Program-made: the position numbers and the translations under genes
Shown here: piece by piece, positions 2,733 to 42,284 of the stretch
Layout: every line of letters begins with the position of its first letter
Position numbering within the stretch: the first letter of the stretch is position 1
The notes under the pieces: model-generated
What the model was told of the DNA's origin: nothing
The model's database searches: none
What the model saw: only the letters and a program-made list of their open reading frames with translations
DNA from: Candidatus Berkelbacteria bacterium
Lineage (GTDB): Bacteria > Patescibacteriota > UBA1384 > JACPKC01
Assembly: GCA_016187225.1 (NCBI GenBank)
Contig: JACPKC010000010.1
Coordinates: forward strand, 67,541 to 131,540
Length of the DNA stretch: 64,000 nucleotides
Reading direction: 5' to 3'

Positions 2733-4109
2733 ATGTTTCCCGATAGATTGCGACAGAGTCGAATCGGTATTTTAGGTTTTGGCGTGAATAACCGCGAATT
2801 GGCTCGTTGGTTAGTTCGTCATGGCGTTTCTAAATTAACAGTTTATGACGAAAATCCGGCCGTTACAGATGCACTTAAACGCCTTGGTCTGACTTCGATT
2901 CGAGTAGTTGCTGGCCCCGGCGCTTTCAAAAAAGTCGAAGCTGACGTTGCCTTTCGTTCACCTGGCATTCCACGCCATCGCCCGGAGTTTCAAGCGGCGC
3001 TTAAACGCGGCGTTGAAATCAGCTCGCAAACCGACCTTTTTCTAGAGTTTTGCCCGGCTCAAGTGATCGGTGTCACAGGAACAAAGGGCAAGGGGACAAC
3101 AAGCTCTCTTATAGCGCACTTGCTTGCCCAGGAGAAAAAATCGGGCGCCCTTCACTTGGCAGGAAATATCGGTCAAGATCCTTTTGAATTTTTAGATGCG
3201 CTGACAGCTCAAGATCGAGTCGTGTTAGAGCTTTCCAGCTTTCAATTAATCGATTTAAAGCATAGTCCAAGCGTTGCCGTGGTTTTGGCGGTATCGTCGG
3301 ATCATCTGGATCACCATTCAACACGTGAAGAGTATGTTGGCGCGAAGCAGAATATTGTTAAATACCAAAAATCGGACGACCTCGTGGTACTAAATTTAGA
3401 TAACGCAACCGCGCTCGCGTTCGGCGCCGCAACGCGCGCGCGCGCTTATTACTACTCGATCCGCAAAAGCGTCGATGTCGGCGCCTTCTATTCGAAAGAG
3501 ACAATTTATTGGCGTCAGCTTGGTCAGGAAATTCCGCAAGTTGTGGCGCACAGTGAAGATGTGTCTCTTATTGGAGAACATAATCGTCTAAACGTAGTCG
3601 CGGCGCTTACAACAGTGTTGGCTCTTGGTTACTCTCAAGATAAAATCGCGAGCGCCTTGCGTTCCTTTCCAGGTTTGTCGCATCGTCTCGAACTTGTTGC
3701 CGAGGATCAAGGCGTACGTTGGTACAACGATTCTTACGCCACCATTCCTGAAGCGACCATTGTCGCGCTCAATAGTTTTCAAGCGCCGATCCATCTCATC
3801 GTCGGCGGTTCGAATAAAGGCGCCGAGTGGCATGAATTGGGTGAGGCAATCGCGCATAGCCAAGTTAAGCAACTTTTAAGCATCGGCGAGACCGGGCCAA
3901 AGATCGCTGATGCGGCCCTGGAGGCTGGCTACGACAAAGCCCGGATTTTTGATGCCATAACCCTTGAGGCGGCTTTGCGACAAGCGCGGTCTCAAGCAAA
4001 ATTTGGTGATGTCGTTCTGCTTTCGCCAGCTTCGGCGTCGTTTGACCAATTTAAGAATGCCAGTCAGCGCGGTGAGATTTTTAAATCCTTGGTCAGAGGT
4101 CAAATATGA
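2733..4109 (+). CDS. murD: UDP-N-acetylmuramoylalanine--D-glutamate ligase
   Basis: GVTGTKGKGTTSSL P-loop and 458 aa Mur ligase architecture. Position mraY-murD-ftsW. Confidence 0.9.
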   Translation: MFPDRLRQSRIGILGFGVNNRELARWLVRHGVSKLTVYDENPAVTDALKRLGLTSIRVVAGPGAFKKVEADVAFRSPGIPRHRPEFQAALKRGVEISSQTDLFLEFCPAQVIGVTGTKGKGTTSSLIAHLLAQEKKSGALHLAGNIGQDPFEFLDALTAQDRVVLELSSFQLIDLKHSPSVAVVLAVSSDHLDHHSTREEYVGAKQNIVKYQKSDDLVVLNLDNATALAFGAATRARAYYYSIRKSVDVGAFYSKETIYWRQLGQEIPQVVAHSEDVSLIGEHNRLNVVAALTTVLALGYSQDKIASALRSFPGLSHRLELVAEDQGVRWYNDSYATIPEATIVALNSFQAPIHLIVGGSNKGAEWHELGEAIAHSQVKQLLSIGETGPKIADAALEAGYDKARIFDAITLEAALRQARSQAKFGDVVLLSPASASFDQFKNASQRGEIFKSLVRGQI

Positions 4110-5242
4110 GCTTGTCGCGTTTCCGTGGTTCGAATCGCGACAAGGTTGATTCTTGGTTGCTTTTGAGCGTGCTCATGCTCGTCGGCGTCGGTTTGATCAT
4201 GATTTCATCAGCTTCAGTCGTGCTTTCATCAGAATACTTCGGCTCGAATTATGCCTATTCAAGCAAACAACTCCTACATTTTGGAATTGGTCTAGTCGCT
4301 CTGATTGTCGGTGTACTGGTTGACTATCGTCTATGGCAACGTTTAGCGCCGGCTCTTCTTGGCGTCATAATTCTGTTATTGCTTGCCACCCATATTCCTG
4401 GGTTGGCGCAAACTGCTCAAGGCGCCCAGCGCTGGATCGAACTTGGGCCGATCCAATTCCAGCCTTCGGAACTTGTCAAGATCTTTGCAATTCTTTACTT
4501 TGCCGCTTGGCTCGCGGCAAAAGGCAGTCATTTATCGAGTTTAACGCGAGGCCTTGTGCCATTTATCACCGTCCTCGGGGTGATTACTTTGCTTATTTTC
4601 GCTCAACCCGATGCTGGGACCGCGATGGTGATTCTATTTACGGTAACGACGATGTATTTTATTGCCGGTGCGCCTTGGATGCATTTGTTCTACGCAGGAA
4701 TTTTAGGCGGTAGTTTGTTTGGGCTCTTGATTCTTTCGGCGCCATATCGGCTTCAGCGGTTTTTGGTGTTTTTGAATCCCTCTGAAGAAACTCTCGGCGC
4801 CGCTTATCACATCAACCAGGCTCTCCTTGCGATCGGCGCCGGCGGCATGTTTGGCGTGGGTTTCGGCCAGAGTAAGCAGAAATTTCTCTACTTACCCGAA
4901 CCGCACACTGATTCAATTTTTGCAATTACGATTGAAGAACTTGGTTTTTTGCGGGCAATGTTAATCGTTGCTTTGCTTATTTTCGTAATGTTGCGGGGTT
5001 ATCAAATCGCCCGGGTGGTTCAGGATCCTTTTGGTCGTTACGTTGCCGTAGGGATAACAAGCTTGATTGCCATTCAGACATTTATCAATATCGGAGCCAT
5101 GTTAGGTCTAATGCCGCTGACGGGTGTCACCTTGCCATTTATCAGCTATGGCGGTTCCTCGTTAATCTCCTTGCTTTTTGGAGTTGGGATTCTACTTAAT
5201 ATCTCTCGACAAGCAGTTTTGATCCCGAAAGGAATGCATTAG
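4106..5242 (+). CDS. ftsW: SEDS family cell-division protein FtsW
   Basis: About 10 TM segments. Conserved QPSE, PEPHTDSIFA and LPFISYGGSS motifs. Lies between murD and murG. Confidence 0.85.
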   Translation: MSLSRFRGSNRDKVDSWLLLSVLMLVGVGLIMISSASVVLSSEYFGSNYAYSSKQLLHFGIGLVALIVGVLVDYRLWQRLAPALLGVIILLLLATHIPGLAQTAQGAQRWIELGPIQFQPSELVKIFAILYFAAWLAAKGSHLSSLTRGLVPFITVLGVITLLIFAQPDAGTAMVILFTVTTMYFIAGAPWMHLFYAGILGGSLFGLLILSAPYRLQRFLVFLNPSEETLGAAYHINQALLAIGAGGMFGVGFGQSKQKFLYLPEPHTDSIFAITIEELGFLRAMLIVALLIFVMLRGYQIARVVQDPFGRYVAVGITSLIAIQTFINIGAMLGLMPLTGVTLPFISYGGSSLISLLFGVGILLNISRQAVLIPKGMH

Positions 5243-5266
5243 ATGTGTTCCTCAATAACCTTTATG
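5237..5266. repeat. Copy A of the CAT...ATG junction element (R orientation): cattagatgtgttcctcaataacctttatg
   Basis: Read directly. The first 15 nt are identical to the reverse complement of copy B. It contains the ftsW TAG stop. Confidence 0.9.
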
Positions 5267-5404
5267 TCTAAATCGTCTCGAATTTGGCTAAACCAAACGC
5301 TTGCCTCGGTCAGTGTAACTCTCGTTACGTCTCTCTCGGCTTTCATTCGTTTCGCTCAAATTCAAACCAATTTCGAGCATGAAATTATTGGGGAACACAT
5401 CTAA
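5264..5404 (+). CDS. Possible 46-aa small ORF (MSKSSRIWLNQTLASVSVTLVTSLSAFIRFAQIQTNFEHEIIGEHI) between ftsW and murG
   Basis: Hand-translated with no internal stop. Starts on the terminal ATG of element copy A. Its TAA overlaps the murG ATG (TAATG). Has a hydrophobic core. No SD and no recognised homology. Confidence 0.2.
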   Translation: MSKSSRIWLNQTLASVSVTLVTSLSAFIRFAQIQTNFEHEIIGEHI

Positions 5405-5406
5405 TG
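5378..5406. repeat. Copy B of the CAT...ATG junction element (F orientation): catgaaattattggggaacacatctaatg
   Basis: Read directly. The terminal ATG is the murG start codon. Confidence 0.9.
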
Positions 5407-6480
5407 AAGCGCATGATCGTCCTTGCCGGCGGGGGAACCGCCGGACACGTTTACCCGGTTTTAGAAGTGATACAGGCGTTGAGAAACTTAGACCCACTGC
5501 TAGATTTTGCTTATATCGGAAATCAGACTGGCCCCGAGAGTCAGTTGGTGCGAGCAGAGCAGGTGCCATTTTATGGCATTCCGGCCGAAAAACTTCGGCG
5601 TTATTGGGATTGGCGCACCTTTCTTCTACCCTTTCGAATTTTCAAAGGCACAGTCGAAGCCTTTGGGCTTTTAAGGATGTTAAAAGCGCAAGCGGTATTT
5701 TGTAAAGGCGGTTATGTGTGCGTGCCAGTTGCCTTAGCCGCTCGCTTCTTGCGTATTCCGATAATTTTACATGAGACGGATTCGATCATGGGACTTTCAA
5801 ATCGCTTAGTGGCGCCTTTTGCGCAAGCGGTTGCAATTAGTTTTCCACGGCCATCACTTATCGAAGCTGGTAAAAATACGCGCATCGTTTATACCGGTAA
5901 TCCAGTCCGACGAGAATTTTTTTCTCAAAAAAAGATCGAGCGTGTCGATGATCGTCCCTGCCTTGTCATAGTTGGTGGTTCGCAAGGCGCACATGCAATT
6001 AATTATTTCATTCAAGTGATTTTGCCCAAACTGCTCGAGCGCTATCGAGTGATTCATATTACGGGGCCCCAAGAGTTTTCAAATTTCCGTCAATTTACTC
6101 GCACAGATGTTTACGAGCCGGTTGCTTACGCCGAGAAAATCGTTGATCTTTTAGCGCAGGCGGATTTAGTTATCTCGCGCGCTGGTGGCACAATCTTCGA
6201 ATTGGCCGCTCTCGGCAAGCCGACAATCTTAATTCCAATTCCTAATTCAGCCAACAATCATCAGCGCGTGAATGCGGAAATTTTACTAAGTCGCGGGGCG
6301 GCGGTTATGCTGAATGAGCGTCAGCTTCAGCCCGCTCAACTTCTGAAAGAAATTACTACCCTTTTTCGAGATTCGATGCGTCGACAGAAGATGGGTGAAC
6401 GGATTCGAGAATTTGCTAGACCAAATGCCGCCCAAGATGTGGCGACTTTAATTTTAAACTCGATCGAGGACCGAGCATGA
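5404..6480 (+). CDS. murG: UDP-GlcNAc:lipid I N-acetylglucosaminyltransferase
   Basis: N-terminal GGGTAGHVYP motif, GT28 architecture, dcw context. Confidence 0.9.
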   Translation: MKRMIVLAGGGTAGHVYPVLEVIQALRNLDPLLDFAYIGNQTGPESQLVRAEQVPFYGIPAEKLRRYWDWRTFLLPFRIFKGTVEAFGLLRMLKAQAVFCKGGYVCVPVALAARFLRIPIILHETDSIMGLSNRLVAPFAQAVAISFPRPSLIEAGKNTRIVYTGNPVRREFFSQKKIERVDDRPCLVIVGGSQGAHAINYFIQVILPKLLERYRVIHITGPQEFSNFRQFTRTDVYEPVAYAEKIVDLLAQADLVISRAGGTIFELAALGKPTILIPIPNSANNHQRVNAEILLSRGAAVMLNERQLQPAQLLKEITTLFRDSMRRQKMGERIREFARPNAAQDVATLILNSIEDRA

Positions 6481-7733: not shown

Positions 7734-8713
7734 ACCAGCTTTATTCTAAACTTCAGCAGGAATTAAATGATCTCAAAGTTAATGAGTCGCTTGCACTTTT
7801 TTCCTATATGAAAGTTGGCGGTTCGGCTGATTATTTATATACAGCACGCACAACGGACGACCTGATCCAAGCTCTTCGCCTGGCGCGCAAATTTAATCTT
7901 CAATGGACAATTCTCGGCGGCGCAAGCAACGTTGTCATTTCCGACCAGGGGATTCGCGGTCTCGTAATTCGCAACCTCACCAATAATACTGGTTTTATCG
8001 TCGATGAAGGGCGAGCGATTGTCGATTCAGGTTTAAGTCTCGCGCGTTTTATTATGCTCGCAGCTCAACACGGCTTAGCTGGGCTCGAACCGCTTTACGG
8101 CATTCCAGGTACAGTCGGCGGCGCTCTCTATGGCAATGCTGGCGCGCATCAGACATCTATTAGCGATTATTTAGCTACCCTGACTGTTCTCACTGAAGCA
8201 GGTGAGATTGAGCAGTATGATAAGAGCTGGCTTAAACCTGAATATCGAGACACGGCGTTGAAATCCGCTCGCGCTCGGGGCGTAAAATCTGGCCCTGTAA
8301 TTTTATCGGCTCAATTTCAGTTGACACAGGCTAAACCTGAAGTGATTCTGAAACGCATTCGTGAATTCAATAGTTGGCGACTTGAGCATCAGCCGATTGG
8401 CGAACCGTGTTGCGGCTCTGTTTTTCGAAATCCCGATCCAAAAGTAAAAGAAAAAACAGCCGGTTTCCTTTTGGATACCGCAGGTGCTAAACAACTTAAG
8501 AATGGCGGGGCGCATGTTTCAAAGAAACACGCCAACTTTGTTGTTCACGATGGTACAGCAACCGCGTTTCAAATTAGAACACTCTTCGATAGAATGCGAG
8601 CACTTGTCCAAACCCAGCACGCTATCGCACTTCAGGAAGAGATTGAATATCTTGGCGACTGGAGCCTGACAGCTAAAGAGGGGAGTCACGATGCCCCAGC
8701 CGAATTGGCGTGA
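7730..8713 (+). CDS. murB: UDP-N-acetylenolpyruvoylglucosamine reductase
   Basis: FAD-binding MKVGGSADYL and GGASNV motifs, C-terminal GSVFRNP motif. Follows murC. Confidence 0.9.
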   Translation: MNQLYSKLQQELNDLKVNESLALFSYMKVGGSADYLYTARTTDDLIQALRLARKFNLQWTILGGASNVVISDQGIRGLVIRNLTNNTGFIVDEGRAIVDSGLSLARFIMLAAQHGLAGLEPLYGIPGTVGGALYGNAGAHQTSISDYLATLTVLTEAGEIEQYDKSWLKPEYRDTALKSARARGVKSGPVILSAQFQLTQAKPEVILKRIREFNSWRLEHQPIGEPCCGSVFRNPDPKVKEKTAGFLLDTAGAKQLKNGGAHVSKKHANFVVHDGTATAFQIRTLFDRMRALVQTQHAIALQEEIEYLGDWSLTAKEGSHDAPAELA

Positions 8714-9485
8714 GCGTTATCGTCATCCTAAAATTTATCGCGCTACACCGACCTATGTCCAGCCGGTTAAGATTCGGCTTGACCCAAAATTAATCGGCAT
8801 GTCAGTCGGGTTGATTCTTTTCAGTGGTTTAATTTGGCTTATTCTCTTCTCAAAATTATTTATGATTCAGCAAATCGATATCGTCGGGACTGTTACGCCA
8901 GAAGTCCAAACCGAAATCACCAATCTGTATGGTAAAAATCTTTTAACTTATTCATCTGGCGGCATGGAGCGACGGCTCAAAGAGGCGCAATCATCAATTC
9001 GCGAGGTTCAGGTTTACAAAGGGCTACCTCGGACCTTGCGAATTGAAATTGCCGTTCGAACGCCGATCCTCGCTTGGCGATCCGGTGATACCACCTATCT
9101 TTTAGATGAACAGGGGATTGCTTTTCAAGCAGGCGTTGGTGTCGCAGTTGACGAACAAGGCAAATCGCTTATTACAGTTGTCGATAATTTTCGTCAGCCG
9201 ATTGTTTTGGGTAAACAGTTAGTCCGCCGCCAATTTATTACGATGGCAGCTGAATTGAGTCGCACTTTTCCAGTCCAATTCCCGTTGATAATTGATCGAT
9301 TGGAAGTTGGGCAAACCACTTTTGAACTCGTTGTTGTTACAAATGCCGGCTGGAAAGCGTATTTTGATACCACGCGTGATCTTGAGCCTCAACTCGAATC
9401 ACTTAAAAAAATCTTTGAAAACTTTCACGATGCAATTAAAGAGTACGTTGATTTACGCATCGTGGGTCGCGCTTATTATAAATAG
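8691..9485 (+). CDS. ftsQ: FtsQ-like cell-division protein (TM + POTRA-like domain)
   Basis: Single TM (GLILFSGLIWLILF) followed by IQQIDIVGT...LL, a POTRA-like start. Terminal position in the dcw cluster. Confidence 0.6.
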   Translation: MPQPNWRERYRHPKIYRATPTYVQPVKIRLDPKLIGMSVGLILFSGLIWLILFSKLFMIQQIDIVGTVTPEVQTEITNLYGKNLLTYSSGGMERRLKEAQSSIREVQVYKGLPRTLRIEIAVRTPILAWRSGDTTYLLDEQGIAFQAGVGVAVDEQGKSLITVVDNFRQPIVLGKQLVRRQFITMAAELSRTFPVQFPLIIDRLEVGQTTFELVVVTNAGWKAYFDTTRDLEPQLESLKKIFENFHDAIKEYVDLRIVGRAYYK

Positions 9486-9494
9486 GAGGACAAG

Positions 9495-10181
9495 ATGCAT
9501 TTGCCGGAAACGCTGCGGATTGAAGAAGAAGTTGTCGAATCATTTGGTGTCTCAAAAAAGTATACGATTCTGATCATTTTGATCGGCTTCGCGATTATTG
9601 TTTTGAGTCTTGTGATTGGTACGGTTTTGGAAGAGTCGATTGCGACCGCTGTTCAAACCTTTGGCCCGCTTGCGCCTTTAATTGCAACCTTGCTTTTTTT
9701 AGTGCCGATTGTCCTTGGACTCTATCTTATTGCACTCGGACTTTACTTCCAGTTAGCTTACCAGTATTTTTTAACCACTGAACGCGTTATTCAGTCGATC
9801 GGACTCTTTGCTAAAGATACAACCAGCGCTGAATATAAAGGCATTACCGATATCACTTTGCGCCAGGATTTGTTTAATCGCTTGATCGGCACCGGGACAT
9901 TGCTCATCAATACCGCTGGTGGCCCGATGGTCGAAATTAAATTGGTCAATATCGATCGGCCGAGTGAACGTAAGGAACTCTTGCGTCAACTTGCCCAGGC
10001 CTCGCACCGTGGCAAGAAGATCACGCGTGATCTGTACCGCAAGTTCAAGCACGCGACAGCAATGGCAACTAGAGAAGAGATGATAGCATCTCCAGAACAT
10101 CCATCAATCGAAGATTTACACAGCGATGGGATCGATGAATCAGATCGATTGAGAGCCGCTCAAAAGCGAATTGCGGAATGA
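9495..10181 (+). CDS. Membrane protein with bacterial PH (YdbS/YdbT-like, bPH_2) domain
   Basis: Two TM helices, then ERVIQSIGLFAKDTTSAEYKGITDITLRQDLFNRLIGTGTLLINTAGG, which fits my recollection of the bPH_2 pattern. Confidence 0.55.
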   Translation: MHLPETLRIEEEVVESFGVSKKYTILIILIGFAIIVLSLVIGTVLEESIATAVQTFGPLAPLIATLLFLVPIVLGLYLIALGLYFQLAYQYFLTTERVIQSIGLFAKDTTSAEYKGITDITLRQDLFNRLIGTGTLLINTAGGPMVEIKLVNIDRPSERKELLRQLAQASHRGKKITRDLYRKFKHATAMATREEMIASPEHPSIEDLHSDGIDESDRLRAAQKRIAE

Positions 10182-10750
10182 GTTCTAGCTTATATATTCC
10201 AGTCATCTTGGGGACGATTCGTCCCGGACGTCTTTCAGAGCGAGTGGCGAGGCTTATTTATACCGAGTTGACAAAACTCTCAAATATTCAAACTGAACTC
10301 ATTGACATTCGTGCTTTGGATTTTGATTTCAAAAATGAAGGTCCGAGCGCCCGCATGCCTAAATTTTCTCGCCAAATGTGGCAGATGCACGGGTTAATTA
10401 TCGTGGCGCCTGAATATAATCACAGCTATCCTGGAAGTCTTAAAATGATTATGGATACCAATCTGGCAGAATATCGCGACAAAGCTGTCGGGCTCGTTGG
10501 GGTTTCAGATGGACCTTGGGGAGGCGCGCGCTTGGTTGAAAATTTGATCAACTACACGCAAACACTTGGCCTCAAGCCGCTTCGCACCGCGCTCTATTTT
10601 CCTCAAGCAGAGAAAATCATTGATCCAGAAGGGCAATTGGTCAATCCAAACTACTTGCCGAGAATAAATCGATTTTTCCAAGATCTTATCCTCCTCGCTC
10701 AAACTTTGGCGCCTATTCAAAAACACGCATCAAAGATAGAAGCACTATGA
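10178..10750 (+). CDS. NADPH-dependent FMN reductase family oxidoreductase
   Basis: ILGTIRPGRLSERVA N-terminus and APEYNHSYPGSLK motif typical of the FMN_red family. Confidence 0.7.
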   Translation: MSSSLYIPVILGTIRPGRLSERVARLIYTELTKLSNIQTELIDIRALDFDFKNEGPSARMPKFSRQMWQMHGLIIVAPEYNHSYPGSLKMIMDTNLAEYRDKAVGLVGVSDGPWGGARLVENLINYTQTLGLKPLRTALYFPQAEKIIDPEGQLVNPNYLPRINRFFQDLILLAQTLAPIQKHASKIEAL

Positions 10751-12486
10751 GCTCACTGGAACGTCACTGGTTAGCGCCCGATCGCGTTCACGCTGATCTC
10801 GTTCGTCAACTTCTGGCGAATCGTTCGATTACCGATGAAGAAAAATTCTTTAATCCGGATTTTGAACGAGACAGCCATGATCCGTTTCTCTTAACTGGCA
10901 TGGACAAGGCAATCTTGCGAATTCAGCAAGCGCTTTCAGTAAAAGAAGTAATCGCAGTCTTTGGCGATTACGACGCCGACGGCATTCCGGGGACTGCCCT
11001 GCTGGTTAAAATTTTGCGGTCTCATCAGGCAACCGTTATTCCCTACATTCCCAATCGTGAGAGGGAGGGCTATGGCTTAAATGAAGCCGCTTTACGGCAT
11101 CTAAAAGATCAAAAGGTTGCCCTAGTGATCACAGTTGATCTTGGAATTACGAATAGGCATGAAGTCAAATTTGCGACCGAATTAGGTCTCGATGTGATTG
11201 TGACCGACCACCACCACATCGAGGCTCAACAGCTCCCTGACAAGGCGATCGCTCTTTTGCATCCCGCTCTGCCGGGTTCGCGCTACCCTTTTGCCAATTT
11301 GGCGGGCGGCGGTGTTGCTTGGAAGCTGACTCAAGCGCTTCAACGCACAACCGGAATTCCTTCCCTTGCACAACTTAAGTGGTGGTTCGAGCTCCCAGCT
11401 ATTAGCACCGTTTGCGATATTGTTCCAATCGTCGATGAAAATCGGATGATTGTTCACTTTGGTATGAAAGTTCTGGCGCAAACTCGCAATGAGGGTTTGC
11501 GGGCACTTTACAAGACGGGTGGAATTGATTCCACCCGTCTCACAGAGAGAGTGATTGGTTTTCAGATCGGCCCTCGCCTGAACGCGCCGGGGCGGATCGA
11601 TCATGCGGCTCTCGCGCTCGAACTTTTATTAACAGAAGATTCTCTTCAAGCCCAGGAGATTGCCGCTCGGATTGAGCTCCAAAATCGCACTCGACAGGAG
11701 CAGTTGGAAGCGATGGTCAATTCAGCGCGTCAAGAAATCTTACAGAACAAATACTACGATCAGGCGGCAATCGTACTTTTAAATGAACATTGGTCGATAG
11801 GTCTAATTGGACTAGCCGCCTCGCGCCTAGTCGAACAGTTCCATCGCCCAATTATCCTGCTTGGCGCCTATGGGAAAGAAGCGAAGGGTTCAGGACGGAG
11901 TATCGACGGTTTCAATTTATTCGGAGCCATTCATGCTCAAAGCCGATTTTTAACGAGTTATGGCGGACACGAAAAGGCGGCTGGATTTCATCTGCCGATT
12001 AAAAATGTCAACAAATTCAAGGCTCGATTTATTGAACATGCGCGGATACATCTCACGTCCGACCAACTTTTGCCGACGCTCAAAACTGACGCTGAAATCA
12101 AACCTGATGAAATCACCAATGAGCTGGTGACGAACCTCATGCGTTTCGCGCCTCATGGGCCGAGTAATCCAAAACCGCGCTTTATCATCGGACCGCTCAC
12201 GATTGCGTCAGTGAAAGCTGTTGGCGCCGAAAGTCAGCATGTTAAGTTCAGTTTCAATGAGGGCGCACCAAATCAGCTTGAGGCGATTGGTTTTCGATTG
12301 GGTGAAAAAGCGAGGAGCTATACATCTCACGACCGTATTTATATCGTTGGGTCGCTCGAGTTCAACGAGTGGAATGGTCTTGACCGAATTCAAATTAAGG
12401 CCGACGATATTAAACTGGCTCAAGCGTGGGAGATAGAACAGAAATCGAGCGATAACTTGCTTTTTGATACGATAAACAAAAGTTAA
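10747..12486 (+). CDS. recJ: Single-stranded-DNA-specific exonuclease RecJ
   Basis: DHH motifs (GDYDADGI, VTDHHH) and DHHA1 region (GGHEKAAG). Confidence 0.9.
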   Translation: MSSLERHWLAPDRVHADLVRQLLANRSITDEEKFFNPDFERDSHDPFLLTGMDKAILRIQQALSVKEVIAVFGDYDADGIPGTALLVKILRSHQATVIPYIPNREREGYGLNEAALRHLKDQKVALVITVDLGITNRHEVKFATELGLDVIVTDHHHIEAQQLPDKAIALLHPALPGSRYPFANLAGGGVAWKLTQALQRTTGIPSLAQLKWWFELPAISTVCDIVPIVDENRMIVHFGMKVLAQTRNEGLRALYKTGGIDSTRLTERVIGFQIGPRLNAPGRIDHAALALELLLTEDSLQAQEIAARIELQNRTRQEQLEAMVNSARQEILQNKYYDQAAIVLLNEHWSIGLIGLAASRLVEQFHRPIILLGAYGKEAKGSGRSIDGFNLFGAIHAQSRFLTSYGGHEKAAGFHLPIKNVNKFKARFIEHARIHLTSDQLLPTLKTDAEIKPDEITNELVTNLMRFAPHGPSNPKPRFIIGPLTIASVKAVGAESQHVKFSFNEGAPNQLEAIGFRLGEKARSYTSHDRIYIVGSLEFNEWNGLDRIQIKADDIKLAQAWEIEQKSSDNLLFDTINKS

Positions 12487-12499
12487 GAAAGGCAACATA

Positions 12500-13132
12500 A
12501 TGTCTTATACATTACCTCAATTAGGGTACGCCTACGACGCGCTTGAGCCGGTGATCGACGCCCAGACCATGGAAATTCATCATAAAAAGCATCATCAAGC
12601 CTATATCGATAAACTCAATACTGTTCTCAAAAGCCAGGCTGATCTTGGTGAATACAACATTAATGCGCTGATGAGTCAGCTCGAATCGATTCCTGAAGAA
12701 ATACGAATGCTTGTTCGCAATCATGGCGGCGGTCATGCCAATCACTCATTTTTTTGGGAGATAATGTGCCCACTTCGTGACCGCGACGAGATGGCAGAAA
12801 AACAAGCCAAACAGATGCTTGCCAAAGTCTTAGAAGAAAATTTTGATAGTCTTGAAAAATTTCAAGCACAATTCACAGAAGCGGCGCTCAATCGTTTTGG
12901 TTCAGGTTGGACATGGCTCATGGTTAACAGTTTGGGCGATCTCGAGATCGCATCGACGCCAAATCAGGATAATCCCTGGATGGAGGGCAAGACACCGATT
13001 CTCGGTTTGGATGTTTGGGAGCATGCCTATTACTTAAAATATCAAAATCGTCGGGCTGACTATATCGAAGCCTGGTGGCAAGCAGTTAACTGGCCTAAGG
13101 CGGTCGAGTTTCTGAAATTAGCCCAGAAGTAA
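12500..13132 (+). CDS. sodA: Fe/Mn superoxide dismutase
   Basis: LPQLGYAYDALEPVIDAQTMEIHHKKHHQAYI and DVWEHAYYLKYQNRR motifs. Confidence 0.95.
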   Translation: MSYTLPQLGYAYDALEPVIDAQTMEIHHKKHHQAYIDKLNTVLKSQADLGEYNINALMSQLESIPEEIRMLVRNHGGGHANHSFFWEIMCPLRDRDEMAEKQAKQMLAKVLEENFDSLEKFQAQFTEAALNRFGSGWTWLMVNSLGDLEIASTPNQDNPWMEGKTPILGLDVWEHAYYLKYQNRRADYIEAWWQAVNWPKAVEFLKLAQK

Positions 13133-13140
13133 CATTGCAT

Positions 13141-13169
13141 CATAAAATTATTGGGGAACACATCGAATG
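13141..13169. repeat. Copy C of the CAT...ATG junction element (F orientation): cataaaattattggggaacacatcgaatg
   Basis: Read directly. Fills the sodA-radA spacer. The terminal ATG is the radA start codon. Confidence 0.9.
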
Positions 13170-17573: not shown

Positions 17574-18752
17574 ATGACGACTCCTTACTGGCGTCTTGCC
17601 GCCGATAAGATTTATCCAAGCAAAGATAGGCTCGTTCGTACGTTGAAGGCGCGTTCGTTAAGGATCTACTTTGGCGCCGATCCGACTGCGCCTTTTCTCC
17701 ATCTTGGGCACACTGTGCCGCTTAAAATTTTACGCGAACTGCAAGAGCAAGGTCATCGGGTCGTAGTCTTGTTTGGTGATTTTACAACTCTCATCGGAGA
17801 CCCGTCTGGTCGCGACCAGAGTCGACCGACACTTGACGAACAAGCGATTGCGACTAATCTTTTGACCTATCGCGAGCAAGTTCTAAAAATTCTTGACCCT
17901 AAGAAAACAGAGTTTCGTTCCAATAGCGAGTGGTATTTGAACCCCCGTTCAAGCGGCGCGCTTAGAGAATTCCTGCGTCTTGGCCTAAACTTTACCGCGG
18001 CTCAACTTTGGGAAAGAGATTTATTTCAGGAGCGTCAGAAAAAGGGCCAGCCAGTCTCTTTAACCGAATTTATTTATCCTGTGCTTCAAGCTTATGATTT
18101 CATCGCCTTGGAGGCCGATGCGCAAGTCGGTGGCACCGATCAAACCTTTAACATGCTAGCTGGCCGGGATTTGGCGAAAAAATTAGGTAAAGGAGAAAAG
18201 TTTGTCATCACGACCCAACTTTTGCGTGGCACAGACGGGCACAAGATGGGTAAATCGTTTAATAACTTCATCGCGCTTACAGATGCGCCAAATGAGATGT
18301 ATGGCAAACTGATGTCGGTTCGCGATGAACTTCTCCCAGAATATTTTATGCTTGCAGTTGGCATTGATCCAAATGCATCCAAAGTGCGAACACTAATCGA
18401 TGCGAATCCGCGCGAAGCGAAAGCAAAAATGGCCTACGAAGTTGTAGCTTTTTATCATGGCGCCGACAGAGCTTTGATGGCTCAAAAAGCCTTTGATCAG
18501 CAATTTCAAGCAAAAGAATTGCCAGGCGAGATTGAAAATCGGACACCATCGGTAACCGGGAATGAAAAGCTTGCCTTTTACTTGGTTGACCTTGACTTAG
18601 CGACATCTAAAACCGAAGCAGGTCGCCTCATTGAACAGGGTGGTGTCAAAGTCGATGGCGCTGTTATTGCCGATCTGCACGCGCTGATCACGCCGCATGA
18701 CGGCATGTTGATTCAGGTTGGCAAACGACACTTTGTCCGCATAAAATTATAG
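17574..18752 (+). CDS. tyrS: Tyrosyl-tRNA synthetase
   Basis: HIGH-type HLGH and KMSKS-type KMGKS motifs, C-terminal S4-like domain. The start is moved to ATG 17574 because the longer ORF from 17253 overlaps the divergent PBP1A gene. Confidence 0.9.
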   Translation: MTTPYWRLAADKIYPSKDRLVRTLKARSLRIYFGADPTAPFLHLGHTVPLKILRELQEQGHRVVVLFGDFTTLIGDPSGRDQSRPTLDEQAIATNLLTYREQVLKILDPKKTEFRSNSEWYLNPRSSGALREFLRLGLNFTAAQLWERDLFQERQKKGQPVSLTEFIYPVLQAYDFIALEADAQVGGTDQTFNMLAGRDLAKKLGKGEKFVITTQLLRGTDGHKMGKSFNNFIALTDAPNEMYGKLMSVRDELLPEYFMLAVGIDPNASKVRTLIDANPREAKAKMAYEVVAFYHGADRALMAQKAFDQQFQAKELPGEIENRTPSVTGNEKLAFYLVDLDLATSKTEAGRLIEQGGVKVDGAVIADLHALITPHDGMLIQVGKRHFVRIKL

Positions 18753-18762
18753 TTGCGAGATC

Positions 18763-20451
18763 ATGACCCACTTTGAAAATCTTATCCATCGAGTTCGTTC
18801 ATTGCTCAGTGGTGAATGCCAGATCACATTCGAGATTCCAAGCAATCAATCGGCATGGTTTTCGGTGCCAATTTTCCACTTGGCTCAAAAGCGCAATCAG
18901 TCAGTCGCCGAAGTTGCCAAGACGATCGTCTCTAGACTGAACTCTCTCTCTGGAGTGCAAGCGAAAGTCGTCGGCGGTTATGTCAATCTTGCGCCAACTT
19001 CAAGTTTCGCGAGGCAAATCTTGGCTGAACTGTCGACAAGTAAATATCAGCCAGAATCTCGCACCGAAACAATCGTCATTGATTATTCAAGCCCGAACGC
19101 CGCCAAACCGATGAGTATTGGCCATTTACGTTCGACTGTGATTGGGGATGCGCTCAAGCGCATTTACCAGTTTCTTGGTTATCAAGTAATTGGAGTAAAT
19201 CATCTTGGCGATTGGGGCACGCAATTTGGCAAACTCCTTGTGGCTTATAAACGCCAGTTTGGCGATCTCACTCCACGGCCAGAGTTGACAGTTAAAGATT
19301 TACTTAATCTTTATGTGCAATTTCATACTGACGCCGACCAGGATCGGGCGCTTGCTGACGGGGCCCGGGCGATGTTTTTTCAATTGGAACATGAACGGCG
19401 TGCGCAAGGACAGGCGAGTGAATTGGTCGCGCTTTGGCGGCAATTGGTGGATCTCTCTAAGCAGGAACTTCAGAGTGTTTATCGGCGTTTGGGGGTGGAA
19501 TTTTCTGACGAGGCGATTAAAGGTGAGAGTGAATATGATCTCGAAGTTAAGCAAGTAAGAAAACAAGCTCAAGAGATGGGGATTTTAGAAACAAGCGAGG
19601 GCGCTCAAATTATTCAAGTTGGAGATGCTTGTCCGCCTTTGATTTTTGAAAAAACTGATGGTTCCACTACCTACGGCGCCCGTGATCTGGGCGCGCTTCT
19701 TTATCGCTTAAAGACATATCGTCCAGCGCAAGTTCTCTATGTGGTCGGAAGCGAGCAGTCACTTCACTTTCAGCAGATTTTTGAGGCGGCGACTTCACTT
19801 GATCTTCTAGGTGTGAGAACGAATAAAACTATCCTTAAACATGTTAAATTTGGCCTTGTTCGTCTACCCGAAGGCAAGCTAAGCACGCGTCAGGGTCGCG
19901 TCATTTTACTCGAAGATGTTTTGAATGAGGCGGTGAAACGGGCGCAGGCGGTGATAGAAGCGCGAGTCGAAGGGCAACCAGGGGACGAGCGCATTAGCGA
20001 AGCAGTTGGAATTGGCGCCCTTAAGTATTTTGATCTCATGCATAATTGTCGCCACGATATCCTTTTCAATTGGGAACGCATGCTCTCACTCAAAGGCAAC
20101 TCGGCGCCGTATCTTCAATATTCCTACACGCGCGCCGTCCAGATTTTAGCTAAGGAGAGCGACATCGAGCAAGAAGTAGGCGTCGTTCCGGTTGAACTTA
20201 TGCCTTATATTCGCACCTTGGCTAGATTCCCATTGATTATTGAGCAAGTTGCCGAGCAGTCCACGCCGCATACCCTTGCTCAATATCTAGGTGAAGTCGC
20301 GGCGGATTTTCATGCCTTTTATGAACGCTTCCCAGTTTTGCAGGCGAGCGCCAGTGATAAGACAGTGCGCTTAGCCTACGTTCGGGCAACACAAAAAATT
20401 CTTAAGATTGGCCTTAATCTTCTGGGTATCGAAGCGCTTGAAAGGATGTAA
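18763..20451 (+). CDS. argS: Arginyl-tRNA synthetase
   Basis: SPNAAKPMSIGHLRS (HIGH region), 562 aa class I architecture, DALR-type C-terminus. Confidence 0.9.
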   Translation: MTHFENLIHRVRSLLSGECQITFEIPSNQSAWFSVPIFHLAQKRNQSVAEVAKTIVSRLNSLSGVQAKVVGGYVNLAPTSSFARQILAELSTSKYQPESRTETIVIDYSSPNAAKPMSIGHLRSTVIGDALKRIYQFLGYQVIGVNHLGDWGTQFGKLLVAYKRQFGDLTPRPELTVKDLLNLYVQFHTDADQDRALADGARAMFFQLEHERRAQGQASELVALWRQLVDLSKQELQSVYRRLGVEFSDEAIKGESEYDLEVKQVRKQAQEMGILETSEGAQIIQVGDACPPLIFEKTDGSTTYGARDLGALLYRLKTYRPAQVLYVVGSEQSLHFQQIFEAATSLDLLGVRTNKTILKHVKFGLVRLPEGKLSTRQGRVILLEDVLNEAVKRAQAVIEARVEGQPGDERISEAVGIGALKYFDLMHNCRHDILFNWERMLSLKGNSAPYLQYSYTRAVQILAKESDIEQEVGVVPVELMPYIRTLARFPLIIEQVAEQSTPHTLAQYLGEVAADFHAFYERFPVLQASASDKTVRLAYVRATQKILKIGLNLLGIEALERM

Positions 20452-22845: not shown

Positions 22846-22923
22846 TGGTCGGGGTGGGCGGATTTGAACCGCCGGTCTCCAGACCCCCAGCCTGGCGCAT
22901 TTGGCCAACTATGCTACACCCCG
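22846..22923 (-). tRNA. tRNA-Pro (anticodon GGG), CCA encoded
   Basis: Hand-folded cloverleaf: acceptor CGGGGTG/CACCCCG, anticodon stem CCAGG/TCTGG, loop CTGGGGG, T-arm GGCGG-TTCAAAT-CCGCC. 78 nt. Confidence 0.9.
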
Positions 22924-26705: not shown

Positions 26706-26779
26706 TGGCAGGAGCTGGAGGAATCGAACCACCGACCGCGGTTTTGGAGACCGCTGTTATACCACTTAACTAAGCTCCC
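26706..26779 (-). tRNA. tRNA-Trp (anticodon CCA), CCA encoded
   Basis: Hand-folded: anticodon stem GCGGT/ACCGC, loop CTCCAAA. The T-arm GGTGG-TTCGATT-CCTCC has one central U-U mismatch. 74 nt. Confidence 0.8.
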
Positions 26780-26789
26780 TTTCTAATTG

Positions 26790-26978
26790 TTAGGTTCGCG
26801 GTTTTGGATTTGGCAATTTTGTCTCGTTATGTTGAGTGTGTTTGCGGCACCAAGTGCAGTATTTTTCAAGCACAAGCTTATCAGTTGTGTTCACAACATT
26901 TTTTGACACCACATAGTTGCGTCGCTTACATTCGACACAAGTGAGATTAAATTTTTGTCGTTTGCCTTTTTTTGCCAT
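26790..26978 (-). CDS. rpmG: 50S ribosomal protein L33
   Basis: [27 protein letters not shown]...[15 protein letters not shown]. Start set at the MAKKGK methionine. Confidence 0.9.
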
Positions 26979-27010
26979 ATTCTTCCTTTCTTTGTCTTTT
27001 TCTACAAAAC

Positions 27011-27085
27011 TGGAGCCCACGGGCGGATTTGAACCGCCGACCTATTCCTTACCATGGAATTGCTCTGCCTCTGAGCTACGTGGGC
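27011..27085 (-). tRNA. tRNA-Thr (anticodon GGT), CCA encoded
   Basis: Hand-folded: acceptor GCCCACG/CGTGGGC, anticodon stem ATTCC/GGAAT, loop ATGGTAA, T-arm GGCGG-TTCAAAT-CCGCC. 75 nt. Confidence 0.9.
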
Positions 27086-27086
27086 T

Positions 27087-27173
27087 TGGTGCTGGGGGTA
27101 GGATTCGAACCTACGAAGGCGCTGGGCCGTCAGATTTACAGTCTGATGCGTTTGACCGCTTCGCTACCCCAGC
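27087..27173 (-). tRNA. tRNA-Tyr (anticodon GTA), long variable arm, CCA encoded
   Basis: Hand-folded: acceptor GCTGGGG/CCCCAGC, anticodon stem TCAGA/TCTGA, loop CTGTAAA, 15-nt variable arm. 87 nt. Confidence 0.9.
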
Positions 27174-27181
27174 TTGTTATC

Positions 27182-27256
27182 TGGAGCCACCTGTCGGATT
27201 TGAACCGACGACCTTCACTTTACAAAAGTGTTGCTCTACCGCTGAGCTAAGGTGGC
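27182..27256 (-). tRNA. tRNA-Thr (anticodon TGT), CCA encoded
   Basis: Hand-folded: acceptor GCCACCT/AGGTGGC, anticodon stem ACACT/AGTGA, loop TTTGTAA. 75 nt. Confidence 0.9.
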
Positions 27257-27323: not shown

Positions 27324-27394
27324 TTATACACTCTACGAACGTTAAATGATTAGAGAGTGTCTAGATACTCATTTAACGTTCGTAGAGTGTATAA
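27324..27394. promoter_or_regulatory. Perfect 26-bp inverted repeat (ttatacactctacgaacgttaaatga / tcatttaacgttcgtagagtgtataa) with 19-nt spacer, in the divergent promoter region
   Basis: Arms 27324-27349 and 27369-27394 checked base by base. The outer ends read TATAAT (plus strand) and TATAAA (minus strand), which are -10-like. Confidence 0.85.
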
Positions 27395-27454
27395 TTGACA
27401 GAAGTGGAGTATTCTGATATATTGCTAATGTACGAAGTGTTCTATGGAGGGAAA

Positions 27455-27961
27455 ATGGAAAAGAAGGATAAACAAAAAGACTTTCAACGTCTTTTCGATG
27501 AAATCGAGTTGCAAATTTTGTATGCCGAAACTCCAATTCAACTTTCTTCAGCGCTTGCAAAGATTACAAAAAACAATCGCTTAATCCAGCGAAATTTACA
27601 TCGTCTATATGATATCGCAAGCCCGGCACGGATTCTAGGGTTAGTCTTACGCGGTTACGAAATTCCTGATGCTCTAACGCGTCTAGAATCAAATCGTTCT
27701 TTGCTCGATCTAAATAGAACCCTAGAGACTCTGTCGAGAACAGCGCTTAAGGAGCAAATTTGGCTCATGCTGGCGCAACAACGTGAAGTTCTGCTTGCTC
27801 AAATAGAACAAGATTTAGAGACACTTGTGCTTAGGTCGTCTGATCAGCGAGCGATTGCAAGTAGAAAACAAATTTTACTTGCAACCTACGAGCTAATCCA
27901 GGAAAATACAAAAATTGCAGTTGAAAAGGTTTTTGGGCGCGCTTTGTCGGTGGAGGGGTGA
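27455..27961 (+). CDS. Hypothetical helical/coiled-coil protein (168 aa)
   Basis: GGAGGG SD lies 5 nt before ATG 27455. The longer TTG 27395 start would begin inside the inverted repeat. No recognised motifs. Confidence 0.5.
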   Translation: MEKKDKQKDFQRLFDEIELQILYAETPIQLSSALAKITKNNRLIQRNLHRLYDIASPARILGLVLRGYEIPDALTRLESNRSLLDLNRTLETLSRTALKEQIWLMLAQQREVLLAQIEQDLETLVLRSSDQRAIASRKQILLATYELIQENTKIAVEKVFGRALSVEG

Positions 27962-39970: not shown

Positions 39971-40465
39971 ATGAATTTACATAGAAGTAAACAACGAGGT
40001 TTCACGCTCCTCGAGCTCCTCGTTGTGGTTGCGATTATCGCGATTTTAGCCGCGGTGATTGTGGCAAACTTAAACTCGGCGCGAAGTAAGGCAAATGATG
40101 CCAAGGTGAAGCAGGATCTCAATGGCGTCGATCAGGCACTTGCAGTTGCGACCGCTGACCCATCGGTTCTTGGATCGGCGCCTTTAAACGCCTTAAATAA
40201 TGGCGGCGGCGTTTTAGTTGATATCGACACCGAAACGGCGCTAACAGTTAATGGTTATCTTAAGACTTTTCCAATTCCACCATCGGGTATAACGCAATAT
40301 AACTATCGTAGCAACTATTCCAATGGGATTTTCGGCTATGTGTTGTGGGGTACACTCTCAACAAAAACTGGCGCAAACAATGACTGCTGGGTTATAAACA
40401 CCGGTAACGCTTTTCAGTCGAACGGCTGTCTTGCCGCCGATACAACTGGTGTAACACTTCCGTAA
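39971..40465 (+). CDS. pilA: Type IV pilin, likely major subunit
   Basis: MNLHRSKQRG|FTLLELLVVVAIIAILAAVIV. Strong AAAGGAGG SD and its own 100-bp upstream region. Confidence 0.8.
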   Translation: MNLHRSKQRGFTLLELLVVVAIIAILAAVIVANLNSARSKANDAKVKQDLNGVDQALAVATADPSVLGSAPLNALNNGGGVLVDIDTETALTVNGYLKTFPIPPSGITQYNYRSNYSNGIFGYVLWGTLSTKTGANNDCWVINTGNAFQSNGCLAADTTGVTLP

Positions 40466-40478
40466 TTTAAGAATTTTC

Positions 40479-41273
40479 ATGTCGGAGTTTGAGCAAGCGG
40501 TCAATTTTTGGCCGCTTGCGGCGATTTTTGGTCTGTTTTGGGGTTCATTCTTGAATGTTCTTGCTTTGCGCTGGGGTTCAAAGTATCGAGGCTTGACACT
40601 CGCAGAACGGAGTCACTGCCCAAAGTGCCAAAAAATTTTAAATTGGCACGAGCTTCTGCCCCTAATAAGTCTTATACTTTTACACGGCCGTTGCCGAGGC
40701 TGTCGAAAAAAAATTGACTTGCGCTATCCAGGCGTTGAAATTTTAACCGCAGTTTTTCTTGGGGGAATAGTTTTTAAGTATGGGTTGTCAGCTCAAGCCT
40801 TAACTCTGTCAGTTGCCGGGAGTTTGCTTTTGATCGCGGCGCTAGTTGATTTTGAAACTCAAATTTTACCCGATTCTTTAGTTGCAAGCGCTTTCGTTTT
40901 AACTCTCCTTGTAACACTTTTACTGGGTCAATCAGCGCTTGTGAATCTAGCGTTTCCAGTTTCCAGTTGGTGGCGGGGCGCCTTAACCGGCGGGTTGATC
41001 ATCGGCGCGATTTTTCTTCTTACGCGTGGGAAGGGGATTGGTTTTGGCGATGTTAAATTAGCGACCGTGCTCGGATCAGTAGTCGGTATGAGCGGCGCCC
41101 TACTTATGTTGTGGAGCGCGTTTATTTTGGGCAGTCTTGTGGGCGGAACACTTCTACTTCGTCGCCGCGCAACCTTAAAGACCGCTCTTCCATTCGGCCC
41201 CTTTTTATTTGCTGGCTGGCTGATCGCGCTTTTTTGGGGTCGTGACATCATTGCATGGTATACTCAATTATAA
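40479..41273 (+). CDS. pilD: Prepilin peptidase / N-methyltransferase (A24 family)
   Basis: Cys-rich N-domain CPKC...CRGC, polytopic, GFGDVKL catalytic Asp motif. Confidence 0.9.
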   Translation: MSEFEQAVNFWPLAAIFGLFWGSFLNVLALRWGSKYRGLTLAERSHCPKCQKILNWHELLPLISLILLHGRCRGCRKKIDLRYPGVEILTAVFLGGIVFKYGLSAQALTLSVAGSLLLIAALVDFETQILPDSLVASAFVLTLLVTLLLGQSALVNLAFPVSSWWRGALTGGLIIGAIFLLTRGKGIGFGDVKLATVLGSVVGMSGALLMLWSAFILGSLVGGTLLLRRRATLKTALPFGPFLFAGWLIALFWGRDIIAWYTQL

Positions 41274-41292
41274 TATTGACGGGTAATAAGTT

Positions 41293-41796
41293 ATGCGTAA
41301 AAACGATACTAATCAGGGTTTCTCGCTTATCGAACTCTTAATCGTCATGGTTATTATTGGTATGTTGGCAACCGTCGTTACTATTTCGTCTTCAGCCTCA
41401 AGGGCGCAGGCGCGCGATAGTCGCCGCAAATCCGATGTCCAGACCGTGGCCGCGGCGCTTGAAACTTATCGAGTTGAGAACAAAGTTTACCCAACCGAGA
41501 ATAACTTCTCCGGAAGCTGGGACGACCTCAAAGTCGTGCTTTTCCCCGATTTTATTTCCGAATGGCCCGACGATCCACAAGGCAATGCCAGTCAATATGG
41601 CGAGGGGTATGTGTACGCAACCGACTCGCTTGGTTCGGCTTACGCGCTTGACGTCACCTTAGAAGGGGATGAAGACGTAACCTTGCAACCCAACGAAATC
41701 GACGAAACTTTGACAGTTAATCCAGATGAAGATTTTTTCGTCACAGGTATCTATAGTTATGGCGGCGACACCCATTACCGCTTCAGCGGCCGGTAA
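41293..41796 (+). CDS. Prepilin-type pilin
   Basis: MRKNDTNQG|FSLIELLIVMVIIGMLATVV. Confidence 0.8.
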   Translation: MRKNDTNQGFSLIELLIVMVIIGMLATVVTISSSASRAQARDSRRKSDVQTVAAALETYRVENKVYPTENNFSGSWDDLKVVLFPDFISEWPDDPQGNASQYGEGYVYATDSLGSAYALDVTLEGDEDVTLQPNEIDETLTVNPDEDFFVTGIYSYGGDTHYRFSGR

Positions 41797-42283
41797 GGGC
41801 TTTACCCTTATTGAACTTATCATTTCGATGGCGATCATCGTGATGCTTTTAGGTTTGGGAATTCCAGCTTTTCGACGCTATGGTTTACGAGCTGATCTAG
41901 AAAATGCAGGTGTGACTTTAGCCACTAATATCTTTCGGGCGCGCACTTTAAGTTTGGCGCCCGAAGCGAGCAAAGAAGGTAATATCACGGCCTACGGCGT
42001 TGCTTTTGATGCTCTGAATAATAAATACCGCATTGCGCGCTTTAGTGGCGAGGGGGCAAACGTTCAAGAAGAAAGCGTCGTCGATCAATTTCTTTTACCC
42101 AATCAGGTCGCTTTTTCGGTTGCGCCTGCCGAGCCGATTCTTTTTCCGCTTGCTCTTCAAGGCGAGCCGGCCCAGCTGCCCGCGGATAGCAACCTCGCTC
42201 TTTTACACACTCGACTCGCCCAAAACAACTCGCGGACTATAAACATCAATCAAGTTACCGGTCAAGTCAGCTTAGAGGAGTAA
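41759..42283 (+). CDS. Minor pilin (GspH/FimT-like)
   Basis: ...AAGKG|FTLIELIISMAIIVMLLGLGIP. Start taken at ATG 41759, overlapping the upstream pilin gene. Confidence 0.7.
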   Translation: MAATPITASAAGKGFTLIELIISMAIIVMLLGLGIPAFRRYGLRADLENAGVTLATNIFRARTLSLAPEASKEGNITAYGVAFDALNNKYRIARFSGEGANVQEESVVDQFLLPNQVAFSVAPAEPILFPLALQGEPAQLPADSNLALLHTRLAQNNSRTININQVTGQVSLEE

Positions 42284-42284
42284 A

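Follow-up and report, generated by a model that had tools for sequence, protein, structure and literature searches.

We examined the junction between ftsW and murG in a 64,000-nucleotide (nt) stretch of DNA from Candidatus Berkelbacteria bacterium (GenBank assembly GCA_016187225.1, contig JACPKC010000010.1, positions 67,541 to 131,540 of the forward strand). This whole stretch is called the window below, and positions are counted from its first letter. The two genes are separated here by a short palindromic element, and the inverted repeats at its two ends take in the ftsW stop codon and the murG start codon. We observed the following features at this locus, including an open reading frame (ORF) that bridges the two genes.

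4106-5242, forward strand: ftsW, 378 amino acids (aa); Pfam FTSW_RODA_SPOVE on the identical product from a Logan assembly
5237-5258, forward strand: left arm of the basal helix, with the last ftsW sense codon CAT, the stop TAG and the ATG at 5243
5240-5403, forward strand: palindromic element with TA at each end, TA-GATGTGTTCC...GGAACACATC-TA (covariance-model match of 183 bits, self-complementarity, fold)
5242-5401, forward strand: element core without the TAs, 160 nt
5243-5404, forward strand: bridging ORF of 53 codons (start at ATG 5243) or 46 codons (start at ATG 5264)
5385-5406, forward strand: right arm of the basal helix, with a GGGG run, the ORF stop TAA (5402-5404) and the murG ATG (5404-5406)
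5404-6480, forward strand: murG, 358 aa; protein identical to the NCBI Candidatus Berkelbacteria MurG from a 320,597-bp contig

An earlier note on this DNA had reported two inverted 29-30-nt sequences at the junction, identical over 15 nt and similar beyond, one holding the ftsW stop codon and the other the murG start codon. The sequence is as claimed. Copy A (5237-5266) reads CATTAGATGTGTTCCTCAATAACCTTTATG, and the reverse complement of copy B (5378-5406) reads CATTAGATGTGTTCCCCAATAATTTCATG. The first 15 nt are identical, and the match extends to 22 nt with a single T/C difference. At the RNA level this becomes a G-U pair, the only one in the 22-bp helix of the arms 5237-5258 and 5385-5406. 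The ftsW gene ends in GGA ATG CAT TAG, and its stop (5240-5242, within copy A) consists of the flanking TA and the first base, G, of the element. The murG start is the ATG of TCTAATG (5404-5406, within copy B). The same note had the 15-nt arms pairing across 111 nt. The complementarity holds, but 111 nt separate the 29-30-nt copies, whereas the perfect arms are 140 nt apart. A second in-frame ATG of murG lies at 5413, three codons downstream (MKRM-IVLAGGG) and just beyond the basal helix, and is a possible alternative start; NCBI places the start at 5404.

An inverted-repeat search gave longer arms of 50 nt that are 74% complementary (5237-5286 and 5357-5406). When the 170-nt segment was globally aligned to its own reverse complement, 126 of the 180 columns were identical, i.e. 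the segment is an imperfect palindrome. No longer inverted repeat within 400 nt was found across the window. The 15-mer, with two mismatches or fewer, had three matches in the window where 0.08 were expected (0 of 100 shuffles gave three), and the 25-mer, with three mismatches or fewer, also had three, where 0.00 were expected. The 29-nt unit is not a stable palindrome by itself, since by inspection only 6 of 8 positions at its ends can pair; it takes two units, separated by 111 nt, to make the palindrome, which distinguishes it from repetitive extragenic palindromes (REP) and bacterial interspersed mosaic elements (BIME). The element is about 164 bp in size and has no transposase gene; its sole ORF, of 46-53 codons, has no family match, and its tips read TA-GA...TC-TA. 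We could thus confirm the inverted pair, which makes up both ends of a repeat of about 164 bp that can fold into a hairpin.

We compared this junction with that of relatives, in which the adjacency of ftsW and murG is conserved. In all four Berkelbacteria relatives compared, the two genes overlap by 4-8 nt without any spacer; these relatives are distant, the nearest other MurG proteins being 54-56% identical. The conserved arrangement thus has no counterpart of the 161-nt spacer, which marks it as an insertion. The earlier note had proposed this comparison as a check, and none of the 4 relatives has the segment.

A protein search with the bridging ORF retrieved a 46-aa paralog, MBI2589696.1 (HYW32_01570), which is 83% identical and lies on a different, 161-kb contig of the same metagenome-assembled genome (MAG). 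Its C-terminus, EHKIIGEYI followed by the stop, back-translates to the same right-arm unit, and neither copy of the pair carries a stop codon or a frameshift. An nhmmer profile of the arm found exactly four sites in the window at E <= 1e-5 and no others, and two of them are solo ends.

13139-13166, forward strand: solo right-end fragment (copy C), ATCATAAAATTATTGGGGAACACATCGA, directly before the radA ATG (13167); nhmmer E = 3e-6
63645-63669, forward strand: solo left-end fragment (copy D), TAGATGTGTTCC-CAATAATTTTATG, before pth; nhmmer E = 1e-5

The arm unit of copy C, AAATTATTGGGGAACACATCGAATG at 13145-13169, shows 1 mismatch in 25 and ends in the radA start codon. The sodA stop is at 13130-13132, and the sodA-radA spacer measures 34 nt here versus 3 nt in one relative. 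The unit of copy D lies in the orientation opposite to that of copy C. Its inner ATG (63667-63669) is the pth start codon, and its TAG comes one codon after the stop of a ybaB-like gene (63639-63641), in the same frame, giving the tandem stops TAG-TGC-TAG at 63639-63647. Judging from these sequences, the solo ends before radA and pth are probably deletion remnants of older full insertions; for copy D, a deletion between the inner ATG of the element and the pth ATG would yield exactly the present sequence. The sequence immediately upstream of radA, and likewise of pth, would now consist of a solo end. Alternatively, the arm unit may have a function of its own in translation initiation.

The covariance model and the nhmmer arm profile gave no further copies in the window, in 15 kb of flanking Logan sequence or at the relatives' loci. 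About 79 kb of the genome was scanned for copies, and the copy number is a lower bound. A sequence upstream of ORF 18763, CATAAAATTAT (18735-18765), shares 11 nt with the inner repeat unit and was not significant in the arm profile (E = 8).

A hidden Markov model (HMM) search of 1.84 billion representative proteins returned four more translated relatives (E 1e-10 to 3e-6). The DNA of three of these, at the loci L040, L041 and L043 of other assemblies, was compared, and statements on the family rest on four DNA copies.

L040:4829-5031 (GCA_964485965.1): homologous element filling the gap between a gene of 518 aa and a GT4 glycosyltransferase gene
L041:759-921: homologous element in a non-coding region adjoining a nickel superoxide dismutase (Ni-SOD) gene, with a perfect terminal inverted repeat (TIR) of 21-22 nt
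L043:~325-487: homologous element between a murC-like gene and the next gene, which starts in TCTAATG

In L040 the upstream stop TAG is formed by the first three bases of the element, the downstream ATG lies within TCTAATG, and a longer, GC-rich stretch of unrelated sequence takes the place of the centre. In L043 the TAG of the element has become TCG and is still in frame with murC, which stops three codons earlier. In L041 the terminal T...A is replaced by C...G with the pairing kept. The right end is TCTA followed by the start ATG in the window, L040 and L043. The T(A/C)G triplet of the element is the upstream stop, or is in frame with it, in copies A and D, L040 and L043. TA flanks both ends in the window and L040 and the right end in L043, and no empty site occurs among the sequences compared. 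The subterminal boxes are conserved across assemblies of 47-59% GC. Overall, this genome holds several copies of the family, and members are also present at unrelated junctions in three other assemblies.

Wider searches were also carried out. A motif scan of genome contigs with ATTGRGGAACACATCNAATG gave 6 matches and one of metagenome contigs with ARRTTATTGRGGAACACATC gave 24, all at chance level and in unrelated taxa; these contig collections hold neither the host genome nor a close relative. The family-level pattern had one chance match in viral contigs, the element had no blastn match among plasmids and phages, and a profile search of a 5.8-billion-protein set with six ORF translations returned no new members.

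A different, almost perfect hairpin (ACCCAAATCACACCTGGCAAGTGTGATT / AATCACACTTGCCAGGTGTGATTTGGGT) was seen at L040:2351-2436, where it fills a 100-nt gap between a gene with a phosphoenolpyruvate (PEP)-utilizer domain and a Bro-N gene. It matches microRNA (miRNA)-precursor models on both strands, only through being a hairpin. The L040 genome therefore has at least two families of junction-filling palindromes.

We also evaluated whether the junction could be an assembly artefact or chance, i.e. ftsW and murG contigs joined through a collapsed repeat, or a hairpin made by an adapter or a chimeric read. The assembly break in the element and two tRNA loci are listed below.

5351-5369, forward strand: 19-nt overlap (FIRFAQIQTNFEH) where the Logan assemblies SRR12113424 and SRR12113420 both break, inside a stretch identical in both full copies
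22846-22923, reverse strand: tRNA-Pro(ggg)
26706-27256, reverse strand: tRNA cluster with tRNA-Trp, tRNA-Thr(ggt), tRNA-Tyr and tRNA-Thr(tgt)

No single Logan contig spans the element, its halves overlapping by just 19 nt, which would suit a false join. However, two independent samples yielded both halves in identical form, matching the window. At its other end, the same Logan contig is broken inside the tRNA cluster, at about 27116; a repeat is expected to cause such breaks in a de Bruijn graph, and the element accounts for the recurrent assembly breaks at the ftsW-murG locus. The second point in favour of an artefact is that the tip of the inverted repeat, AGATGTGT, equals the first 8 nt of the Nextera/Tn5 mosaic-end adapter, which is present untrimmed (AGATGTGTATAAGAGACAG) at the start of another contig (L047:1-19). 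The likeness ends after these 8 nt and was judged coincidental, so the tip was rejected as a Tn5 mosaic end, and homologous elements in other assemblies have other termini (AGACCTGT, AGACGTGT). Since the ftsW-murG synteny is conserved as well, an artefact can be given almost no credence. The 8-nt likeness could by itself cause over-trimming of reads at this locus.

The 46-codon ORF described in the earlier note, from ATG 5264 to a TAA that overlaps the murG ATG (TAATG), exists and is annotated by NCBI as the hypothetical protein MBI2589984.1 (HYW32_03125). Its extent needed revision, as the in-frame ATG at 5243, which directly follows the ftsW TAG (TAGATG) and gives 53 codons, had been missed. 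It is the only open frame through the hairpin. Both copies in the MAG are annotated as hypothetical proteins, they are 83% identical and uninterrupted, translated homologs are found by HMM, and the ORF starts beside the ftsW stop and ends on the murG start. These observations would fit a genuine family of 46-aa small-protein genes between ftsW and murG, flanked by inverted regulatory sites, with the palindromy being incidental. The substitutions, however, are not those of a protein. Between the window and L041 ORFs, the 39 differences in 138 nt are distributed 12/13/14 by codon position, and 22 codons differ nonsynonymously against 5 synonymously. L041 has ACG in place of the inner ATG, and in L043 this ATG is out of frame. 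In two homologs the frame runs on past the end of the element, the L040 centre is swapped for unrelated GC-rich sequence, and a Pfam search of the ORF gave no family. Nucleotide-level conservation together with covariation of the arms explains the similarity at the protein level. The bridging ORF is not under protein-coding selection, and we regard a small-protein family as highly improbable.

We further estimated the folding of the element. The RNA of 5225-5420 folded into one long hairpin with a minimum free energy of -60.5 kcal/mol, compared with -37.5 +/- 3.9 for shuffled sequences (z = -5.93), and the arm duplex by itself gave -31.6 kcal/mol. A fold prediction had been among the checks suggested earlier, and it bore out the proposed pairing. 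RNAalifold on three aligned copies showed double compensatory changes in 17 of 50 predicted pairs. In the terminal helix the window has GATGTGTTCC, L040 has GACCTGTCCC and L041 has GACGTGTTCT, and the partner arm matches in each. The long hairpin is thus maintained by compensatory changes.

The earlier note had suggested that the arms could occlude the murG initiation codon, and the computed fold agrees with this. In free mRNA the murG AUG and the 20 nt upstream are predicted to be paired, with a computed probability of being unpaired, P(unpaired), of 0.03 at the AUG and 0.00 at the GGGG run. When a ribosome footprint on the ftsW stop was imitated by masking 5225-5255, the computed P(unpaired) of the murG AUG rose to 0.67. 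Attenuation in the terminator sense, another of the suggestions, was not supported, as the hairpin is not followed by a T-tract (the right arm is followed by ATGAAGCGC) and no terminator-like site was found within 5237-5406. A promoter scan of the element found no consensus. Rfam 15 gave two chance-level matches for the window element, to small nucleolar RNA and miRNA models (14 bits, E = 4-5), and none for the L040 and L041 elements; there was no match of the element family at E <= 10. Other identities of the unit were rejected by inspection. As a promoter, with TAAAAT as the -10 box, it did not fit in spacing or consensus (the scan being empty as well), and as a Shine-Dalgarno cassette, LexA or DnaA box, dif site or integron attC it showed a similar misfit.

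These results also bear on the question of whether the hairpin is a functional, cis-acting structured RNA (an intercistronic processing or stability hairpin, or a translational operator) that spreads or is kept by selection for its control of genes such as murG, radA and pth and is not selfish DNA. The strong fold, the compensatory pairs, the boxes conserved at 47-59% GC, the terminal T-A pair becoming C-G in L041, the computed sequestration of the murG AUG and the sense orientation of all junction copies are what such an RNA would show. Nevertheless, the same junction lacks the element in four relatives, the copies lie in unrelated genomic contexts, which in L041 include a non-coding region, and the solo half-elements cannot form the hairpin. 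Rfam had no match, and neither a terminator T-tract nor a promoter consensus was present. Covariation of the arms is itself unspecific, since one transposase binds both ends of a transposon and these also co-vary. A regulatory RNA of this kind is thus unlikely.

Together, these studies have led us to conclude, with a probability of about 0.72, that the inverted pair represents the TIRs of a non-autonomous, hairpin-forming palindromic element, similar to a miniature inverted-repeat transposable element (MITE), inserted at the stop-start junction of ftsW and murG. The earlier note had listed a MITE-like insertion in the dcw operon among its possible readings, and this is the one that the evidence favours: absence in 4 of 4 relatives, a second full copy, two solo ends, homologs in other assemblies and TA-flanked ends.

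The ancestral junction would have been CAT-TAATG, the ftsW TAA sharing a base with the murG ATG, and the element would have entered at the TA of this junction and duplicated that dinucleotide. Deleting 5242-5403 gives GGA ATG CAT TAATG AAG, where the ftsW TAA and the murG ATG overlap by one base, and the same deletion in L040 gives TCA TAATG AAC. The predicted empty site would be GGAATGCAT-TA-ATGAAGCGC, with GGAATGCATTAATGAAGCGC at the junction. A one-base TAATG overlap is an ordinary junction for this compact genome, where the majority of genes touch or overlap their neighbours. With G as the first base of the element, the left junction reads TAG and leaves FtsW unchanged; with C as the last base, the right junction re-creates TAATG and leaves the MurG start unchanged. 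The extra CAT/ATG pairing at the base of the helix derives from the host flanks and is missing in L040 and L043. In such a genome, stop/start overlaps would be among the few sites where a TA-targeting insertion survives, and we propose that the ends of the element coincide with stop and start codons because few other TA sites are survivable. We also considered whether the duplicated target was longer, with AATG in the window and AATGAC in L043; this was rejected as inconsistent across copies, since L040 is without it.

Several points weigh against this interpretation. No cognate autonomous insertion sequence (IS) with matching ends was found, the TIR occurring at just the four sites in the window, and the known copies are few (two full copies and two fragments). 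The TA duplication and the exact ancestral junction were reconstructed, with the nearest MurG only 54-56% identical. The homologs in other assemblies were found via their ORFs, so that the open frame and the sense orientation are an ascertainment effect. The C...G swap in L041 argues that the terminal bases belong to the helix and not to a target duplication. In L043 the hexamer AATGAC is present at 313-320 (5 nt before the left end) and again at 487-492 (directly at the right end), perhaps by chance or perhaps as a longer target duplication that arose from an ATGA overlap in the ancestor. The preservation of coupling described next is proposed from modelled folds.

With regard to the expression of murG, the 22-bp basal helix would put the ftsW stop opposite the murG AUG and hide the latter, and a ribosome finishing ftsW would melt the left arm and free the murG start. 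Additionally or instead, ribosomes may re-initiate at AUG 5243 or 5264, translate through the hairpin and stop at UAAUG. By both routes an ancestral translational coupling of ftsW to murG would be kept. The note's further suggestion of a coupling device for murG is consistent with this anatomy and with the computed opening of the AUG from 0.03 to 0.67; it does not hold as a device specific to this locus, since the element is multi-copy and sits at other junctions. The bridging frame starts in an ATGA overlap with murC in L043 and at the inner ATG in L040. The bridge thus appears to be built differently each time, an observation biased by the fact that L040 and L043 were found through their ORFs.

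It is possible, and we raise it tentatively as a doubtful extension, that the family is an operon-compatible mobile module of essential, coupled operons in ultra-compact genomes, one that avoids polar effects. The features of such a module may be termini that rebuild TAG and TAATG, a frame that is kept open, and a foldback that sets the stop opposite the start. If this were true, genes could co-opt the ends of the module as translation-initiation regions, as radA and pth may have done. Put differently, the module would be a mobile coupling device made of structured RNA, and lineages that differ in GC content would have conserved it.

The insertion, if correctly read, shows selfish DNA persisting with almost no intergenic space, in an essential cell-wall and division operon, and rebuilding both signals. 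Its distinctive point is that it rebuilds the stop and the start of the very genes that it separates. The hypothetical proteins HYW32_03125 and HYW32_01570 are probably repeat sequence, translated or untranslated, and not genes.

Some other features of the window were also observed. A near-perfect palindrome at 27324-27394 (29-nt arms, 97% complementary, with a 13-nt loop) adjoins the tRNA cluster and ends exactly at the TTG start of ORF 27395-27961; its sequence is unrelated to the ftsW-murG element. A TATAAT lies 7 nt before the murD ATG (2715-2735), suggesting a possible leaderless start. The dcw gene order is common to the relatives, with lineage-specific insertions between mraY and murD. 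At 8691-13132 the dcw cluster mraZ...murB is followed by a gene of 264 aa without a Pfam match, which occupies the position of a weak FtsQ_DivIB_C match in one relative; after it come bPH_2, FMN_red, recJ, sodA and radA in place of ftsA/ftsZ. At 39971-43492 there is a run of small genes whose N-termini carry a type IV pilin-like motif, (K/R)GFTL(I/L)E, followed by a 956-aa gene and others.

We compared the element with known systems. Bacterial MITEs are shorter than 200 bp, have TIRs and a terminal 5'-TA-3', and form a stem-loop by pairing of their 5' and 3' ends (PMC2229807); RUP of Streptococcus pneumoniae is a TA-flanked MITE linked to IS630-Spn1 (PMC2229807, PMC10969869). The ftsW-murG element resembles these in its size below 200 bp, the lack of a transposase, its TIRs and TA termini and its long end-paired stem-loop, and also in having several copies, an intergenic location, degenerate remnants and an absence from relatives. 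It differs in a very low known copy number and in that no partner IS was found, and the likeness is one of description, not of sequence. It is a new representative of the bacterial MITE or palindromic-repeat class, which is already known, in a genome of the candidate phyla radiation (CPR); full-text literature searches showed no MITE described for CPR bacteria.

The Correia elements or Neisseria miniature insertion sequences (Correia/NEMIS) and the enterobacterial repetitive intergenic consensus sequences or intergenic repeat units (ERIC/IRU) are palindromic repeats co-transcribed with their flanking genes. Their RNA hairpins alter mRNA processing or stability via RNase III or RNase E, with effects that vary with ribosome position and orientation (PMC2229807). 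The ftsW-murG element is likewise a palindromic repeat and would be co-transcribed with its flanking genes. The sequences and hosts are, however, unrelated, and whereas those repeats usually lie some distance from coding ends, the ends of this element coincide to the nucleotide with a stop and a start codon.

Rickettsia palindromic elements (RPE) and Coxiella QMITE2 are open-frame palindromic repeats tolerated in, or at the ends of, essential genes, and QMITE2 supplies the C-terminal 33 aa of EnhC with the stop codon immediately downstream (PMC5896051, PMC10969869). Here too a palindromic repeat carrying an open frame is tolerated at essential genes. In contrast to RPEs, which are translated as in-frame parts of host proteins, the element leaves FtsW and MurG unaltered and its frame is a separate, bridging cistron.

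In classical operon coupling, a sequestered start codon is unmasked by the ribosome that terminates on the upstream cistron. The arrangement at ftsW-murG is similar in that the downstream AUG is predicted to be paired with sequence that the terminating ribosome would cover, and in its UAAUG overlap. It differs in that the pairing partner is brought by a mobile element, across 160 nt of inserted hairpin, and is not local sequence. If the proposed coupling holds, this junction would be a compact natural example of long-range, structure-mediated coupling.

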